Sequence record: NC_101837.1
Direction: 5' to 3' (one strand)
DNA length: 64,000 bases
DNA from: a phage
Shown here: piece by piece, positions 8,163 through 44,868 of the stretch
Layout of the letters: every line of letters begins with the position of its first letter
Numbering within the stretch: position 1 is the first letter of the stretch
Notes under the pieces: generated by a model
Seen by the model: the letters and a program-made list of their open reading frames with translations, nothing else
Database searches by the model: none
Told to the model about the DNA's origin: nothing
Translations under genes and position numbers: made by a program

Positions 8163-10474
8163 TCACCAAGGTAATTAAAAGCAACGGATGTGAAGTGGCA
8201 TTCGATCCAGAACGTTTAAATAAGGCAGCTATTTTCGGTGACGACGGTAACGGCAATTGGTCACATATTGCACTGGATGCCTACAAGCGGTTGTATGATG
8301 GATGTACAACCAAAGAAGTTAACCAAGCTATTATAGACTCTTGTGTTAGCCGTAAAGACGAAGCACATTCCCGTATGGCTGGTCGTGTTCTTATTGGTCA
8401 GATTTATAAAGAGGCTTTTGGAGGGTTTACAAAGATCCCTTCCTTACCATCATTTTACAATACCATGGTTGAGAAAGGGTATTGGGAGGATATGGGCTAT
8501 AGCTTTACCGAGCTAAACACTTTAGACGCTGTTATTGACCACAGTAAAGATCTCGGTTATGGCTATGCAGTCCTTAAACAGTTTCGCGACAAATACGGGA
8601 TCAAGGATACTCTTAAAGACACCCTGTTTGAATCTCCCCAGATGATGTTTATGGGGATAGCAATGGCTGTCATGAAGAATATGCCGAAAGAACGTCGTAT
8701 CAACGATGTTGTAAAATTATACACTTATCTGTCCGACTTAAAGATCAATGCCCCGACACCGTACTTAAACGGGCTGCGCACAGGTAAGACAGGGTATGCA
8801 TCTTGTTGTGTAATAAAAGCTGACGATACAGCAAAATCTATTGGTGTGGCACGTGAAGTTGCGTACACAATGACGGTTAACCAAGCAGGTATCGGCTACT
8901 ACTTATCCTCAAGATCTGCAGGCGATGGTGTTCGTGGTAACACTATTAAACATATGGGTAAGATTCCATATTATCGAGGTATTGATGCTGGTGTTAAGGA
9001 GAACAGACAACAATCACGTGGCGGTTCTGCAACAGTATCATTCCTTGCACTGGACCCGCAGATTGATGAGCTAATCCGTTTGAGAAACCCTATGACTGTT
9101 GCTTCAAAAAGAATCAACACCATGGACTACTCCATCGGTATTAATAGGTCGTTTATCAACCGTGTGGCTAAGAATTTAGATTGGATGCTTGTTTCTTATA
9201 AGCACGCTCCTCAACTGCATGAGGGTATCTTCACCATGTCTATGGAGGAGTTCGATGCAGAGGTTGAGCGTATTGCTAAAGATGACAGTATTCCTAAAAC
9301 ATGGATCCGAGCCAGAGATCTTGCTGTTGAACTGATCACGCAGCGTACTGAGGTGGGAAGGCTGTATGTATACTGGACAGATGAGATGAATAGACATACA
9401 CCTTTTAAAGATGTGATCTATTCAAGTAACCTGTGTGCAGAAATAGCCCTCCCGACAAAAGGCTATTCAGATATGCGTAATATCTTCAAGTACGATGCTG
9501 ATGATGGAGAGGTTGCATTGTGCTTCCTGTCATCTCTTGTAGCTGGAAGGGTTACTCCAGAGGAGTATGAGGATGTTGCATACTACACGGTGCTTATGAT
9601 TGACAATGTTATGGAAATCATGACATATCCGTATGAAAATATGGAAAGCACAGTTAAAAAACGCAGATCCATCGGGGTTGGCCTTACCAATGTTGCACAT
9701 TTTATTGCCAGCCACAAGGTTACTTACGGGTCTCCTGAAAGTAAACAGCTCGTTCACGATCTTGCAGAACTTCACAGCTACAGCTTGCATAAGGCAAGTT
9801 TACGGTTGGCAAAAGAGCGTGGTGTCTGCGAGTGGATGCATAAAACAAAATATCCAGAAGGTTGGTTACCAATCGACACCTATAACAAAGAGGTCGATAG
9901 CGTGGTGAAAGATCCTTCTCTTAAACAGGATTGGGAAGGGTTACGTAAAGAAATCATTGAGAATGGTGGGCTACGTAATAGCGTTCTTGAAGCATATATG
10001 CCTAATGAAAGCTCTTCGCTGGCAACAAACACCACTAACGGGGTTTATCCTGTCCGTGAGCACATTATCTTTAAAAAGTCGCCACAAGGGCAGGTGCTGT
10101 TTATCGTTCCTGACTATGATGAGTTGAAAGAGTATTACACCTCGGCTTGGGACGTTGATACTAACGACATGATCGATATGTATGCCGTGATTCAAAAATT
10201 CACAGGTCAGGCAATCAGCGCGGATTTATACATAGACTACACCAAGTTGAAAGATGGTAAAATTTCAATGAAGGAGCAGTTAGGGTACCTTATCCGTGCC
10301 ACTAAATTCGGGATGAAGACATGGTATTATTTAAACTCTAGGGTTGGTGCTGGTGACTCCTTGGCAGAGGAACTTCATGCCAAGAAACAGGCTGAAGATG
10401 AAACCAGAAAGAACTATCCTTTGATTGCAGATAGTTCAGTTGAAGATCCGTATTGCGAAAGCTGTGCACTATAA
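8159..10474 (+). CDS. nrdA: ribonucleotide reductase class I large subunit
   Basis: N-terminal ATP-cone, NLCAEIALPT active-site region, 771 aa; TTG start after GGAGGA. Confidence 0.9.
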   Translation: MITKVIKSNGCEVAFDPERLNKAAIFGDDGNGNWSHIALDAYKRLYDGCTTKEVNQAIIDSCVSRKDEAHSRMAGRVLIGQIYKEAFGGFTKIPSLPSFYNTMVEKGYWEDMGYSFTELNTLDAVIDHSKDLGYGYAVLKQFRDKYGIKDTLKDTLFESPQMMFMGIAMAVMKNMPKERRINDVVKLYTYLSDLKINAPTPYLNGLRTGKTGYASCCVIKADDTAKSIGVAREVAYTMTVNQAGIGYYLSSRSAGDGVRGNTIKHMGKIPYYRGIDAGVKENRQQSRGGSATVSFLALDPQIDELIRLRNPMTVASKRINTMDYSIGINRSFINRVAKNLDWMLVSYKHAPQLHEGIFTMSMEEFDAEVERIAKDDSIPKTWIRARDLAVELITQRTEVGRLYVYWTDEMNRHTPFKDVIYSSNLCAEIALPTKGYSDMRNIFKYDADDGEVALCFLSSLVAGRVTPEEYEDVAYYTVLMIDNVMEIMTYPYENMESTVKKRRSIGVGLTNVAHFIASHKVTYGSPESKQLVHDLAELHSYSLHKASLRLAKERGVCEWMHKTKYPEGWLPIDTYNKEVDSVVKDPSLKQDWEGLRKEIIENGGLRNSVLEAYMPNESSSLATNTTNGVYPVREHIIFKKSPQGQVLFIVPDYDELKEYYTSAWDVDTNDMIDMYAVIQKFTGQAISADLYIDYTKLKDGKISMKEQLGYLIRATKFGMKTWYYLNSRVGAGDSLAEELHAKKQAEDETRKNYPLIADSSVEDPYCESCAL

Positions 10475-31019: not shown

Positions 31020-32549
31020 CACACAATTAGCTGCCCGGCTAAAGTGCTGGAAGCACCTATAACACATCTTTCAACTAAATTTCCTACCACCACAATCACT
31101 TACCTCCCACACATGACTGTTTGCTTGTTTAGTGAGCAGTCATGCCTTGACATTCTTGCCTATCTTGATAAAATTAAGTTCTTCTCTTTTCTTTTACCGA
31201 GTAATTCGGGTTTTCTGTTCTCTTCGGTTTGAAGGGGTATGGAGATACACCTGAGTGAACAGGGTGAACAACCGAACCTTTGGCTATGGCATTAGCATGG
31301 CGAAGCGGACGGGTGACGAAAGAGGGGCCGGAGGACACCAGTCACTGCCATATGATATATGGGTGATAACCTGAAGAGTCTGAATAAGTGTTTAAGTACC
31401 AGTCAGAGGAAAAGGTGAATGGTAGCCGAAGGGGGATGGGGGGTTTCTTGTATCTTTAATTTGTATATTATGTATACACTTGTAAACCAATCTCATCTGA
31501 ATCTGTTTACCACACAAAGCGGATAGAGACAAATATCACCTATTAAACTTGAATTATTTATAGAAAATACCACAACACCAATTAAGTCTTTGATTTTAAA
31601 CACAAATCCTACAGATATTCAACCTCCATATTTAACATACTCGTAACATATTCCATACTCTACCTGTCTGATCAATTTACCCAACTACATCCCCATATTT
31701 TCCCTGTCTGTACTACCCCATCCCCGCCGGGAGTCCCGTCATATCTGGCTTTCCAGCAAATATCACACCCACAAATATCATTGCCTGAAGAGGGTTTCAT
31801 CCCATAATACATGCCTTACATGAAGAGCGCTTCATACACCACGTAAATTTTTTAATTGACCTCCCCGCCGCCGGAGAGGTTGGCTTTTCCCCACACAGAC
31901 CTGAAGAGTCAGCCAGAAATATCTGAACAGGTCCAGTTCTGCCTTGTCATGAGCCGTAGCGACTGGAGTGCTGCCAGGCGGACGGAATGGGAATACTTCT
32001 CATTCTTATAATAATTCTCAAATATCGAGGCAGTGAGGCAAATTAATAGGTGAGGCCGTTCACACAGTGGCACAACATTTGCAATCTATTTTGTGGGGGT
32101 GAATGAGAATACCTATCATTGTGAGAACTGTTATCATTACGGGCAATTTAACATAATACCCATTATGCGCACCACTGGCGATCCATACAGGGATTGATAA
32201 CATGAGTTACAGTTTACGCATATAACAATCATATTTCTTACTATTTGTGTGGGATATAGTTAGCAGCCGATAGATTAGATATTGACCTGTGGACTTCCAA
32301 CCGTCTAGACGTCTAAACGCCCACACAACAAGGATTATACATACATTACTGAATGTAAACAGGGCCGCAAAAATGCTACCATACCAGTTTGTAAATTTTT
32401 CATGCAGCACTTGACAAAGAGAGGAAAAACTTGTCTGACATGCTGGGCATACTTCACACCTTAAACATACTCAACACTGGATACAATAACAATTGTTACT
32501 ATTGCATGCCTCACTGTTCACGTATAGACTATTTGCTCAAAAATGATAA

Positions 32550-32569
32550 GCCATGCCATTCGTTTGCAT
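32550..32569. repeat. 20-bp direct repeat, copy 1 (GCCATGCCATTCGTTTGCAT)
   Basis: Exact 20-mer repeated at 32822-32841. Confidence 0.7.
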
Positions 32570-32654
32570 GATAACAATAACGATCAACAACAATAAAGAC
32601 TGAAATGATAACGTTGTTGATTTGACTGACTAACAATTAACAGGCTAATAATCT

Positions 32655-32798
32655 ATGACATAATATAAAAGCAGGGCAACTATTAGCAGATCTATAGTTG
32701 CCTTGCTTGTTATGTCATGATTAACTAAATACAAGGCAACTATGATCTGATTAATAGTTTGCAGACAAACTATCACGGGGGTGATGGTTACTGCTTTT
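32655..32798. repeat. iteron-like cluster bracketed by an 18-bp inverted repeat
   Basis: ATGACATAATATAAAAGCAG ... CTGCTTTTATATTATGTC arms enclose at least 5 copies of GGCAACTAT / ATAGTT(T)GCC in both orientations. Confidence 0.65.
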
Positions 32799-32821
32799 AT
32801 ATTATGTCGCGACTCCGTCGC

Positions 32822-32841
32822 GCCATGCCATTCGTTTGCAT
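32822..32841. repeat. 20-bp direct repeat, copy 2
   Basis: Identical to 32550-32569; followed by a further ATAGTTGCC copy. Confidence 0.7.
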
Positions 32842-33502
32842 AGTTGCCTTATTGTTACAGATAAAATAATTGTATTGTTAATTATTTCTTATCTTTCTAT
32901 TAGTCATCTAATGATTCCAGTTAGTATAGTAACGTACAGTAAACATTAGACGACTAAAGATTTCTCTGATTATGATAACTTGCCGTGACAATTTCAGACT
33001 GTTTACGAAAAATGTTGACACCTGAGCTGATTTATGTTATGCAATTTAAACGAATAATTATTTTATGCAGGTATTGACTATTCTGTTATCCTATGGTCGG
33101 AATAAATACTTAGCAGGCTATAGAATGGTGAGCGTACGTAAATTCTGAGATCTGTCGGCTATAGTTATACTCGATTTTTCACGTAGAACACGCTTTTTGG
33201 TTTGTGTAAGTGTATGACTTATAAAGATTTTTAGTTGTTGACAAGATATTGAAGATGTGCATCAGGTTAAATTTTGTGCAATAGCTGCATTACGTGCAAT
33301 TTTGGAAGGAAAACGGGTAAAAATAGCACCGCTACCACACAATGAAAGGTTATGCAATAGTTATTTTACATGTATATTTGTACAGTGTGTGGGATTGATG
33401 GCTCGTCAATTATTCCACTTGCCAGGTAGGGCCGTTTATGGTAGGGAGGAAGAGCAGACAAAAAGAAAGGGACCTAAGCCCCTTGATAATTCAGTTAAAA
33501 AA

Positions 33503-34391: not shown

Positions 34392-34664
34392 TTACTTACG
34401 GCGGCAGAATTCAAGCGTTTTTAATTGATAATCTTCCTCAGCCTGGAGTACAACCGCCTCGATCATTTCGTTGGCATTGTTGAAGCCATATCCTTTAGCG
34501 AATTCATCCGCACCACCTTCGTGATCATGTTCTGCGTTCATCGCTTCCACGAAATGGAATTCAAGATTATTGAGATAAGGGCTTGATGTTCCGTCCTCTT
34601 TTTCGATGAGATCCCAAATAGCATTGAAACGTGATTCAACTTCTTGGTTAATCCAGCTTAACAT
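34392..34664 (-). CDS. hypothetical acidic protein (start at internal Met with RBS)
   Basis: GAGAGG RBS before MLSWINQ... Confidence 0.5.
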   Translation of the reverse strand: MLSWINQEVESRFNAIWDLIEKEDGTSSPYLNNLEFHFVEAMNAEHDHEGGADEFAKGYGFNNANEMIEAVVLQAEEDYQLKTLEFCRRK

Positions 34665-34767
34665 GGCGTTTTCCTCTCTTCCGGTTGTTGTGTGGGCGCT
34701 TTTGCCCCCTTCGAGATAAATGCTACCCCACCACCTGGCAGATGTCAACGGTTTTTATAGTTTTTAT

Positions 34768-34815
34768 ATAGCAGGCACACCCGGTGATTGTCTCCCCCCC
34801 GTCGCCAGGTGCCTG
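34768..34815. repeat. GC-rich ~48-nt intergenic element (inverted copy of the 43723-43772 element)
   Basis: GCAGGCAC...CCGGTGATTGTCTCCCCC...GGTGCCTGC; reverse complement matches CGGCAGGCACC...GACGGGGGAGACAA.CACC at 43723. Confidence 0.55.
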
Positions 34816-34877
34816 CCGTGAAACAAGTATAACAAAAAACAGGACCATTGCAAGCCCTGTTTTGTAGTTTATAAGGA

Positions 34878-38006: not shown

Positions 38007-38146
38007 TTTGTTTCTCCTTTTGGAACTTTGTCTATGCGGTGGGGAGTGTCTCCCCGTTGATTGTTATTATCCATATTCTGGATCGGATTGCAACACTCAG
38101 GGAGAAAAAAATTTGAAAAGTTAGGCCCCAGGGATCGGGGCCGTTA

Positions 38147-43384: not shown

Positions 43385-43525
43385 TTATTTTAAATTATTT
43401 TTATGATAGAATCCACCTGCCGCCCCCGCCAGGTTAACCACCATTTTTTCGTACTCTTCTTTATGTTCCCGCGCTTCTGTATCATTAATCACTACATTTC
43501 CCAGGTGAGTAGCATTACCTTTCAT
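43385..43525 (-). CDS. 46-aa micro-protein (not in ORF track)
   Basis: ATG after GAGGAGG RBS; MKGNATHLGNVVINDTEAREHKEEYEKMVVNLAGAAAGGFYHKNNLK. Confidence 0.4.
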   Translation of the reverse strand: MKGNATHLGNVVINDTEAREHKEEYEKMVVNLAGAAGGFYHKNNLK

Positions 43526-43722
43526 TTTTGTACCTCCTCTTCAATTGTTTACCCTACAGTATGGGCCTACCAGGTTTGCAAGATTTCACCCTCTCCCACC
43601 TGGTCAGTTAGGTCCTGCCAGGCTGGCCCCGCCAGGTTGCAGCGGTTAGCGCATCAGGTTAGAAAAATTTTTTGAAAAGTGTTGACAGCGGCCCCGACAG
43701 GTGGCACAATATACCTATCGAA

Positions 43723-43772
43723 AGGACGGCAGGCACCGGTGACGGGGGAGACAACCACCAGGGATGGGCGCT
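43723..43772. repeat. GC-rich intergenic element (forward copy; partial third copy at 43865-43905)
   Basis: CGGCAGGCACCGGTGACGGGGGAGACAACCACCAGGG; related GGCCGGGAGACAATCACCGGGCC at 43877. Confidence 0.55.
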
Positions 43773-44039
43773 GCATAAAATGAGAACGGTTATCATTATC
43801 ATTTAAAAATTTATGCAAAAAATCCTTGCTTTCTTTGTCCTGTGTGATACTATAATAACAAGCCGGGGCAACAGGGGCCGGGAGACAATCACCGGGCCTG
43901 CCCGTTATTCTGCAAACGAGAATGATTATCATTCAAGATTCTAAATGAGAACTCCTCGCATTTAATAAATTTAATTAGCACGCTAATTACCCTCCGTAAC
44001 AATTTACTATAAAATAGTATCCACTAAAATATTCCCATA

Positions 44040-44510
44040 TAGAAATTTTAAAAATCCATTTCTGAAAACGAAAAATCGATTTCGTCCCCAAAAATTTCAG
44101 GTTGAGAGCCGGAACGATTTCCAGAAAATCCGATTCAGAAAACGAAAAACAGGTCGAGTACTGAGAAATTTATCGAGAAAAATTTTCAGAAAATCCAAGC
44201 CCTGAAATGAAAAGTAGATCGAGTACCTGGAAAGCTGCACCGCAACTTCAAGATAGCGGTTAGATTGTTACCATAGAAGGTCAAGGGTAAGTGGAGGAAG
44301 TTCTAGTAGAGGGAGGTTAGCATGTGTGGGAAATCTATAATGGTGGCCTGGAATATGGTGCAAACGATAGGATGAGTTATTCAGCTTGTCGCGCCTACTC
44401 TGAAAAATCCATTTTAGTTTTCGATCCATTTTCTGATTTTCTAAGAATTTTAAAATATCCAGCCCGGTGAAATATCAAAAGGAGGAAATCCATTTTAGAA
44501 ATCCCCCTTA
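44040..44510. repeat. degenerate direct-repeat array (core GAAAATCC(A/G)(A/T)TT, at least 5 copies) in a 1.1 kb non-coding region
   Basis: aaaatccatttctgaaaacgaaaaatcga / cagaaaatccgattcagaaaacgaaaaac / cagaaaatccaagccctgaaatgaaaag / gaaaaatccattttag / ggaaatccattttag. Confidence 0.6.
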
Positions 44511-44538
44511 TACTTGATATGCCAGGAATTTTCAAGTA

Positions 44539-44868
44539 TCAGTTGTCTTTGTTTTTAGGTTTGTACATGCGCAGAGGTATGGTCTTTGTAACATTCCATT
44601 TCCTCAACCCTTCCCAGCTCCAGTTGTGGGCGTGGTATCCGGTTATGCATGCACTACTGGAGTGATCGTAAGCATAAGAGAACGCTAAGCGCACCAGGTG
44701 GGGCCAGTCCTTCCATGGTTGTGGACCGTAAGCTTTTCTCCAACACCGACACAAACTAAATGTCTCAAGAATAGGAAGGATAACAAATCCATACACCGCC
44801 ACCAGAATAGCCAGCGCAATGATTGTCAGGAATACATACCCTGCAGTTGAAATGATGATCTCTGTCAT
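44539..44868 (-). CDS. membrane protein
   Basis: N-terminal TM IISTAGYVFLTIIALAILVAVYGFVILPI. Confidence 0.45.
   Translation of the reverse strand: MTEIIISTAGYVFLTIIALAILVAVYGFVILPILETFSLCRCWRKAYGPQPWKDWPHLVRLAFSYAYDHSSSACITGYHAHNWSWEGLRKWNVTKTIPLRMYKPKNKDN

Follow-up and report, generated by a model that had tools for sequence, protein, structure and literature searches.

A conserved non-coding island with predicted promoters and Fur-like boxes in the early gene block of an rV5-like phage

Layout of the locus

We analysed 64,000 nucleotides of phage DNA (record NC_101837.1; this whole stretch is referred to here as the window), with a focus on an island at 43526-44540 that lies inside a block of minus-strand genes. 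The homologous region is 99.6% identical in Escherichia phages nomine, HdK5, and CarlMeissner, and, going by this identity, the source phage is a Vequintavirus (rV5-like). Plus-strand genes occupy the first 30.1 kb of the window, the part from 31.1 to 33.2 kb is poor in open reading frames (ORFs), and small minus-strand early genes follow from 33.5 kb onward. A preliminary description of the window, made from its letters alone, had listed repeats, promoters, and shared motifs in the island. Two findings outweigh the individual repeats. The parts of the island appear to form a control hub that is common to two phage subfamilies, and among them is a Fur-type motif that is also found in T5-like and many uncultured phages. 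The features of the island are listed below from left to right, with the means by which they were called.

43526-43681, minus strand: left edge, leader and putative promoter region of a 46-aa gene (43385-43525, minus); sequence and conservation profile
43682-43710, plus strand: predicted promoter P1, TTGACA-17-CACAAT with TG upstream; promoter scan, 10/12 matches
43712-43775, plus strand: element A, a GC-rich leader with GGGAGACAACCACC at 43746-43759; repeat family D11
43779-43803, no strand: Fur-like box A, AATGAGAACGGTTATCATT, 26.5 bits, overlapped by a second site of 10.3 bits, 6 bp to the right; matrix scan
43826-43853, plus strand: predicted promoter P2, TTGCTT-16-TACTAT with an extended -10 (TGa); sequence inspection
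43857-43910, plus strand: element B, a GC-rich leader with GGGAGACAATCACC at 43880-43893, then the deeply conserved CCTGCCCGTTATTC at 43897-43910
43907-43936, minus strand: candidate leftward promoter TTGAAT-18-CAGAAT, its spacer filled by box B1 (hypothesis only); sequence inspection
43915-43933, no strand: Fur-like box B1, GAGAATGATTATCATTCAA, 26.5 bits; matrix scan
43944-43962, no strand: Fur-like box B2, 18.1 bits, 29 bp from B1; matrix scan
44003-44030, plus strand: predicted promoter P3, TTTACT-16-TAAAAT; promoter scan, 9/12 matches
44038-44233, no strand: three diverged tandem units of 65-74 bp each; repeat family D1
44234-44395, no strand: variable spacer with 52-66% invariant columns, containing a mini-ORF at 44322-44375; conservation profile
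44396-44545, no strand: conserved right block with AAATCCATTT-type motifs at 44405, 44423, and 44487 and AAATATC at 44453 and 44470

Coding status

The island is non-coding over 43526-44540. The preliminary description had said as much of about 1 kb, and the annotated ORFs and the mini-ORF indeed fail tests of coding potential or conservation. A 92-aa minus-strand ORF at 43654-43932, annotated in relatives (PHROG 14993), has variable columns that fall 11/11/12 by codon position. It is broken by two in-frame stops in one relative, and a change in poly-T length moves its end. This even variation, together with the in-frame stops, argues that the island is truly non-coding. A plus-strand ORF at 43403-43675 has no homology to the small plus-strand coding sequences that precede the island in other genera. 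The 17-codon plus-strand mini-ORF at 44322-44375, earlier credited with a strong ribosome-binding site, does exist, but no other segment of the island is conserved as poorly as the one around it, and the relatives YN3, FV3, and L071 do not keep its start, its length, or its ribosome-binding site; it is not a gene.

No tRNA was found by ARAGORN in the window or in relatives. In one Klebsiella phage record (OY978796.1, L004), annotated tRNA-Lys, tRNA-Ile, and tRNA-Met overlie the island at 1878-2573. Because ARAGORN does not reproduce these features, their coordinates are probably misplaced. A genome terminus or pac site was also considered, as three records begin inside the island. Random opening of circularly permuted assemblies would presumably place about 2.6 record starts there (our estimate rather than a computed value). 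Since the number seen is close to this expectation and the terminase gene does not adjoin the island, we rejected this reading.

Conservation across phages

Within Vequintavirus, positions 43630-44230 are 90-98% invariant, while the flanks at 43530-43630 and 44230-44395 reach 24-66%. The island as query matches 248 phage records, of which those from distant genera match only element B and the box. Beyond the genus, BLAST aligns only about 43865-43975 (element B and the first box), at 72-88% identity, with matches that include Phapecoctavirus, Mydovirus, Seunavirus, Certrevirus, Henunavirus, and Serratia phages. When the version of the island in phage PVP-SE1 was used as query, 359 records matched.

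The order of parts extends further than the alignable sequence. The same order was found in Seunavirus, Certrevirus, Henunavirus, Mydovirus, Phapecoctavirus, Justusliebigvirus, and Aeromonas phage PAc; the architecture recurs in hundreds of genomes of Vequintavirinae and Stephanstirmvirinae and in this Aeromonas phage. At these loci, the minus-strand genes are interrupted for 0.8-1 kb. This gap holds, from left to right, a plus-strand sigma70 promoter, a segment that we call unit 1, TGTAAAGAnnTGTAAAGA, a second plus-strand promoter, and unit 2, which is element B of the window. Unit 2 is followed by between one and five palindromic boxes of 19 bp, in most cases a third plus-strand promoter, three repeats of about 70 bp, a variable stretch, and a motif block. 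In this last block, AAACCATTTC-type and AAATATCA clusters are the equivalent of the right block of the window. On these comparisons, the island is a deeply conserved cis-acting control hub common to two phage subfamilies. A regulatory hub had been among the roles proposed in the preliminary description, and the promoter geometry kept across genera and the shared Fur-type motif point the same way.

Fur-like boxes

The two GAGAA-type motifs that were first noticed at 43781 and 43917 and said to recur at 32.1 kb were recovered as GAGAAYNRTTATCATT at 43782 and 43918 and also at 32105 and 32123. The motif given for them, GAGAAnnnTTATCATT, is a Fur-box look-alike. Of the 19 positions in the Fur consensus GATAATGATAATCATTATC, box B1 shares 14, including both half-sites of the core AATGAT-n-ATCATT, and its orthologue in 4MG shares 15.

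A symmetric matrix was built from phage boxes only (44 boxes from 16 homologous islands; consensus AAATGAGAATnATTCTCATTT) and scanned over 120 kb of E. coli K-12, namely 150-190, 600-630, and 3535-3585 kb. In the 600-630 kb segment, the six best matches all fall in the fepA-fes, fepD-entS, and fepB-entC divergent promoters, after which the score drops from 8.6 to 5.4 bits. The best match in 150-190 kb is the fhuA promoter (18.4 bits). In 3535-3585 kb, it is AATAATAATCATTCTCATT in the ryhB promoter (28.0 bits), 6-24 bp upstream of ryhB, with a site upstream of feoA tied for second. At 13.5 bits or more, six of the seven matches over the 120 kb thus lie in classical Fur-regulated promoters. The seventh, ATTGAGAATCATTCTGAAT, scores 14.1 bits and lies between map and tff-rpsB (K-12 189581-189599; L135 39582-39600). 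Judged by this matrix, the boxes share the sequence specificity of host Fur sites, and the passing mention of Fur as a possible binder in the preliminary description was apt.

In the window, six boxes reach 16 bits or more, versus 0.055 in shuffled sequence. Three of them are in the island (43779, 43915, and 43944) and three form a second cluster:

31986-32138, no strand: second Fur-like box cluster, with boxes at 31986 (20.6 bits), 32102 (22.3 bits), and 32120 (16.1 bits); matrix scan

This cluster lies in a 2-kb, ORF-poor, AT-rich region (31100-33250) where the plus- and minus-strand gene blocks converge. The region has many direct and inverted repeats, for example at 32650-32860, and is probably the grey "non-coding" box on the map in the rV5 genome paper.

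The 6-bp overlaps and the one-sided drift of the boxes fit DNA operators. Overlapping sites offset by 6 bp are seen at 43779/43785 in the window, and this is the modal spacing in unrelated phage contigs (56 cases). Clusters of real Fur sites overlap at 3- or 6-bp spacing (PMC2189734). In the homologous islands, the modal spacing is 29 bp (34 cases). Where the boxes depart from the palindrome, they do so on one side only in 69 of 78 cases, which argues that the boxes evolve as protein-binding DNA half-sites and rules them out as RNA hairpins. With respect to the predicted transcription starts, the boxes lie at about +60 from that of P2 and at about -84 and -113 from that of P3. No phage-encoded Fur homologue was matched by tblastn in the window. 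Nothing could be learned from a BLAST search of E. coli genomes with the box region, a query too short for a 28-Gb database.

The boxes are also found well beyond these phages. Scanning IMG/VR for exact copies of the 17-mer gave 103 stretches, many of them from phages unrelated to the source phage and with box clusters; T5-like phage DT571/2 is among the carriers. Some relatives and unrelated contigs have up to 10-14 boxes in 12-14 kb, and for one such box-rich unrelated contig (L093), the phage collection contains no relative. In phage T5 itself (AY587007, L136), boxes at 9473, 9577, and 9612 within 9468-9637 of the record score 24.9-31.6 bits. They coincide with features annotated in Repeat Region 3, namely direct repeat C copies 1-4 and palindromes E-I, immediately to the left of the 7.9% nick. 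A comparative study of this region discusses DnaA boxes and never mentions Fur (10.1101/866236). In the library that we searched, no description of Fur boxes or Fur-type operator arrays in lytic or virulent phages was found.

Promoters

The sigma70-like plus-strand promoters that had been placed at 43681 and about 43826 were found at 43682-43710 (P1) and 43826-43853 (P2). P1 is identical across six Vequintavirus sequences. The orthologues of P2 in 10 genera keep a -35, a spacer of 16-18 bp, and a -10, while their bases differ. Geometry that is kept while the sequence turns over is a good sign of selection for rightward transcription. At the position of P3, relatives have better promoters, such as TTGACT-17-GATACT in Klebsiella phages and a TTGACA -35 in PVP-SE1 and 4MG. 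All three promoters are directed rightward, toward the repeat block and opposite to the surrounding leftward early genes.

Elsewhere in the window, an early promoter at 38030-38100 (minus strand; TTGCAA-17-GATAAT) is followed by a perfect hairpin in the 5' untranslated region, GGGGAG-ACA-CTCCCC, which resembles the GGGAGACA core of the GC-rich leader elements. Early transcripts of the source phage may generally have a 5' leader hairpin.

GC-rich leaders and the RNA question

Element A is a diverged duplicate of element B, and a third promoter and GC-leader cassette is found about 9 kb to the left of the island:

34768-34853, minus strand: element C, predicted promoter TTGCAA-16-TATACT, then GGGAGACAATCACC

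Element C is oriented in the direction of the genes and is without a Fur-like box; it lies directly upstream of a second promoter for gene 34392-34666. The GC-rich element at 43723-43772 had been described as having an inverted copy at 34768-34815. The sequence that they share, GGGAGACAAYCACC, is present at 43746 and 43880 on the plus strand and, inverted, at 34783-34796 on the minus strand (four matches versus 0.65 expected). Klebsiella relatives have an extra cassette about 4 kb from the island (L087, minus strand, about 8034; L019, about 4307). The cassette looks duplicative or mobile within genomes.

The suggestion that the island encodes a non-coding RNA is not supported for the window. 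The Rfam scan recommended in the preliminary description found no family in the island, either at the gathering threshold or at E up to 10, and no match was found in eight relatives at E up to 1. Compared with shuffled sequences, single-sequence folds gave z-scores of -2.66 for element B, -2.36 for element C, and -0.54 for element A. For orthologues of elements A and B, most z-scores are insignificant, between +0.7 and -1.8. For 18 element-B (unit 2) orthologues from different genera, RNAalifold gave no consensus structure (-1.7 kcal/mol with one compensatory pair), and inspection by eye found limited covariation in the outer stem (AUAGCG/CGCUAU, AUGGCG/CGCUAU, and AUGGCG/CGUCAU). What is conserved in the element-B region is the primary sequence of GAGACAAYCACC and CCTGCCCGYYATTC, not the fold. 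A structured long RNA from P3 was rejected, as the predicted transcript of 0.5 kb is no more stable than shuffles (z = -0.14). The pseudo-ToxI of phiTE, a type III antitoxin mimic, was also set aside; it is at a different locus, and the phiTE homologue of the island lies at about 38-40 kb.

Unit 1 of the other genera gave a different picture. This promoter-driven element of about 85 nt (GCCACCCCACGGCGaAAAGGCGGGGCUAAC...GGAAGGUGGAUCGCCGGUAG; L109:1838-1935, L004:2316-2410, L114:1885-1965) has 17 pairs under RNAalifold, eight of them with compensatory changes; among these are a well-supported hairpin and a CCCC:GGGG pairing that becomes CCAU:AUGG. A pseudoknot pairing of the loop with downstream sequence is likely, and the element is without a match in Rfam. 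We consider unit 1 a candidate new structured RNA of Vequintavirinae and Stephanstirmvirinae, and, given the compensatory changes, rightward hub transcripts probably carry a functional RNA in the genera that have it. The rV5-like genus, including the window, is without unit 1 and has element A, the diverged duplicate of unit 2, in its place.

Repeat block, right part, and left edge

Each of the three tandem units at 44038-44233 carries AAAATCC(A/G)ATT...GAAAACGAAAAA, and units two and three end in (G/A)TCGAGTAC. They are 61-72% identical to one another, the surrounding DNA is 37% GC, and the array is nearly invariant within the genus. The two CGAGTAC repeats that had been noticed earlier lie at 44155 and 44221 and turned out to be the ends of these diverged 65-74-bp units. 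Tandem Repeats Finder does not detect the array of about 70-bp units. A three-unit layout ending in GATCGAG(A/T)ACC is also present in Seunavirus, Mydovirus, and a Serratia phage; the GATCGAGACC motif recurs in Certrevirus, where the three-unit layout was not checked. At least five repeats of the GAAAATCC type had been reported in this part of the island. Such repeats are real, but only four copies, as GAAAATCCRWTT, fall within one mismatch (44050, 44124, 44403, and 44484). Their core AAATCC occurs six times in the island, always on the plus strand. At the right end, an inverted repeat at 44507-44542 (I19) is followed by a T-rich run on the plus strand, and together these could be the end of the rightward transcripts.

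At the left edge, the 46-aa minus-strand gene at 43385-43525 has an AGGAGG ribosome-binding site before its ATG at 43525, and its product matches PHROG 21957. The edge itself (43526-43681) is CCWGG-rich, poorly conserved at 43530-43630 and conserved at 43620-43680. CCWGG (Dcm-site) motifs fall in GC-rich tracts at 43413-43440, 43557-43640, 43687-43703, and 34727-34740 of the window. These tracts recur in and around early-promoter spacers (GCCCCGCCAGGTT and similar), and in relatives too, for example as CTTGCAACCTGGGGCC in a Klebsiella phage.

Discussion

The reading that we prefer, with a probability of roughly 45%, is that the island is a non-coding transcription hub gated by host Fur. It possibly doubles as a transcription-activated replication origin. 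Host RNA polymerase would start rightward at P1, P2, and P3, and iron-loaded Fur (Fur-Fe2+) would occupy the operator array between P1/P2 and P3, gating transcription through or out of the hub. Fur might be a roadblock to the P1 and P2 transcripts, it might act on P3 from upstream, or it might repress a leftward promoter that has box B1 as its spacer. Whatever the sign of this regulation, which we infer along with the binding of Fur and the role of the output, rightward non-coding transcription would follow the iron status of the host, or the titration of Fur by phage DNA as its copies build up. It would run antisense to the upstream early genes and continue into the repeat block.

Several observations weigh against a hub gated by Fur. 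Fur usually represses from sites that overlap the -35 or -10 of a promoter, but the boxes overlap neither element of P1, P2, or P3. Only the weak leftward candidate is overlapped, and this keeps the -11 A in only about nine of 15 orthologues. The conserved 14-mer CCTGCCCGYYATTC and the motif GAGACAAYCACC in element B are not accounted for. The phasing of 29 bp is no known Fur spacing, and the boxes prefer GAGAAT over the GATAAT of Fur (69% G versus 26% T), so another protein with related specificity may be involved. Were this a dimeric DNA-binding protein encoded by the phage, bound in place of Fur, the likeness of the boxes to Fur sites would be convergent or competitive, and both the consistency of the GAGAAT preference and a phasing that is not described for Fur would fit. 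We think such a protein improbable, however. The same box occurs in lineages that cannot be aligned at the DNA level and belong to different families or subfamilies (Vequintavirinae, Stephanstirmvirinae, T5-like phages, and environmental contigs, whose shared proteins were not compared), and the ryhB promoter site reaches 28 bits with a matrix made from phage boxes.

The main competing explanation, and one that is compatible with a Fur-gated hub, is that the repeat block is a replication origin. The GATCGAG-type repeats of about 70 bp would be its iterons and the A/T tracts its unwinding element, P1-P3 would provide transcriptional activation or an RNA primer, and host factors would bind the Fur-like boxes in an accessory role. 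In the AT-rich right half (GC 0.37), three phased units keep their layout from genus to genus although the sequence differs, and there are GATC clusters in relatives. Three promoters are aimed into the repeats, and the island is located in the early/replication arm. GC skew is less negative to the left of the island (about -0.07) than to the right (about -0.13). No origin is known for rV5; its genome paper reports none and does not describe the island (PMC3606486). However, this skew change is small, and that of rV5 changes only where transcription changes direction (PMC3606486). No initiator gene was identified beside the island, and the only DnaA-like 9-mer in it (44019-44027) is not kept by other members of the genus. 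The homologous box array of T5 is in the terminal repeat and not at the mapped origins (10.1101/866236). Taken by itself, an origin strikes us as somewhat unlikely, though less so than a phage-encoded binder.

Two further explanations would assign the function to RNA or to the mere number of boxes, and both seem to us less probable still. Elements A and B, transcribed from P1 and P2, could be short structured RNAs that act in trans on host or phage targets. The strong promoters are followed immediately by GC-rich hairpins with z-scores of -2.66 (B) and -2.36 (C), the cassette is present three times in the genome, and the position of element A is taken in other genera by unit 1, with its eight compensatory pairs of 17. 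Against this stand the absence of an Rfam match even at E = 10, the consensus of only -1.7 kcal/mol and one compensatory pair for unit 2, and the insignificance of most z-scores. Neither element A nor element B is followed by an intrinsic terminator, and conservation is highest in a stretch of primary sequence that extends into the DNA box. Alternatively, the boxes could be a decoy: hundreds of copies of at least six high-affinity sites per genome would titrate host Fur as phage DNA replicates, de-repressing iron uptake and other Fur-controlled genes to the benefit of iron-dependent phage enzymes. Plasmid-borne Fur sites do titrate Fur in the classical Fur titration assay, FURTA (PMC2189734). 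The two box clusters in the window, the 10-14 boxes in some relatives and unrelated contigs, and the same boxes in unrelated T5-like phages would agree with this. A decoy would need neither fixed positions relative to promoters nor a strict 29-bp phasing, whereas the boxes have both.

Should Fur indeed bind, host iron physiology would be tied, in a concrete way that can be tested, to the course of infection by phage groups in wide use for therapy and biocontrol. Binding would suggest a function for a 1-kb region that all annotation pipelines now fill with spurious "hypothetical proteins", and it would offer a new angle on the long-unexplained injection-stop region of T5. More speculatively, and with appreciably less confidence than for the island itself, virulent enterobacterial phages, among them rV5-like, phAPEC8-like, T5-like, and numerous uncultured ones, may share a recurrent component that has gone unrecognised until now: phased arrays of Fur operators in their large, conserved non-coding regions. 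The phages would either sense host iron through Fur, timing the start of replication, the shut-off of early genes, or DNA entry, or strip Fur from the host chromosome with replicating DNA.

Comparison with known systems

The closest likeness is to the Fur operators of E. coli (ryhB, fhuA, fepA-fes, fepD-entS, fepB-entC, and feoA), which have the same 19-bp AT-rich palindrome, an identical core, and overlaps offset by 6 bp. The phage boxes differ from them in the GAGAAT half-site, in the 29-bp phased arrays, and in lying between promoters rather than on them.

Repeat Region 3 of T5, the proposed injection stop signal region, is alike in being a conserved untranslated region of about 1.2 kb with ordered repeats and the same boxes. 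It differs in being part of a terminal repeat, beside the 7.9% nick, with paired DnaA boxes (10.1101/866236). The rV5-like island, by comparison, sits inside the early gene block, lacks a conserved DnaA box, and has promoter and GC-leader cassettes. The two regions have no homology outside the boxes. Given the internal location and the single, non-conserved DnaA-like 9-mer, the island was rejected as an injection stop region of the T5 type, only the boxes being shared.

Transcription-activated phage origins include lambda ori, with iterons and an AT-rich region, the primary origin of T7, with tandem promoters, and oriF and oriG of T4. The island resembles these in its tandem promoters that read into an AT-rich, repeat-bearing, non-coding segment and in the dyad symmetry of its repeated 19-bp sites. 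It is set apart from them by the likeness of these sites to host Fur sites. The pR/pL pair of coliphage 186 is a face-to-face promoter switch. If the leftward candidate is real, P2 and the leftward promoter would face each other at a distance of about 40-50 bp in a similar way, but the leftward promoter of the island is a weak sequence match and the source phage is virulent. Sites for host regulators are well known in the DNA of temperate phages, for example those for LexA and that for Fur at stx1. With a function that we infer, the boxes of the island would extend this class of host-regulator operators in phage control regions.

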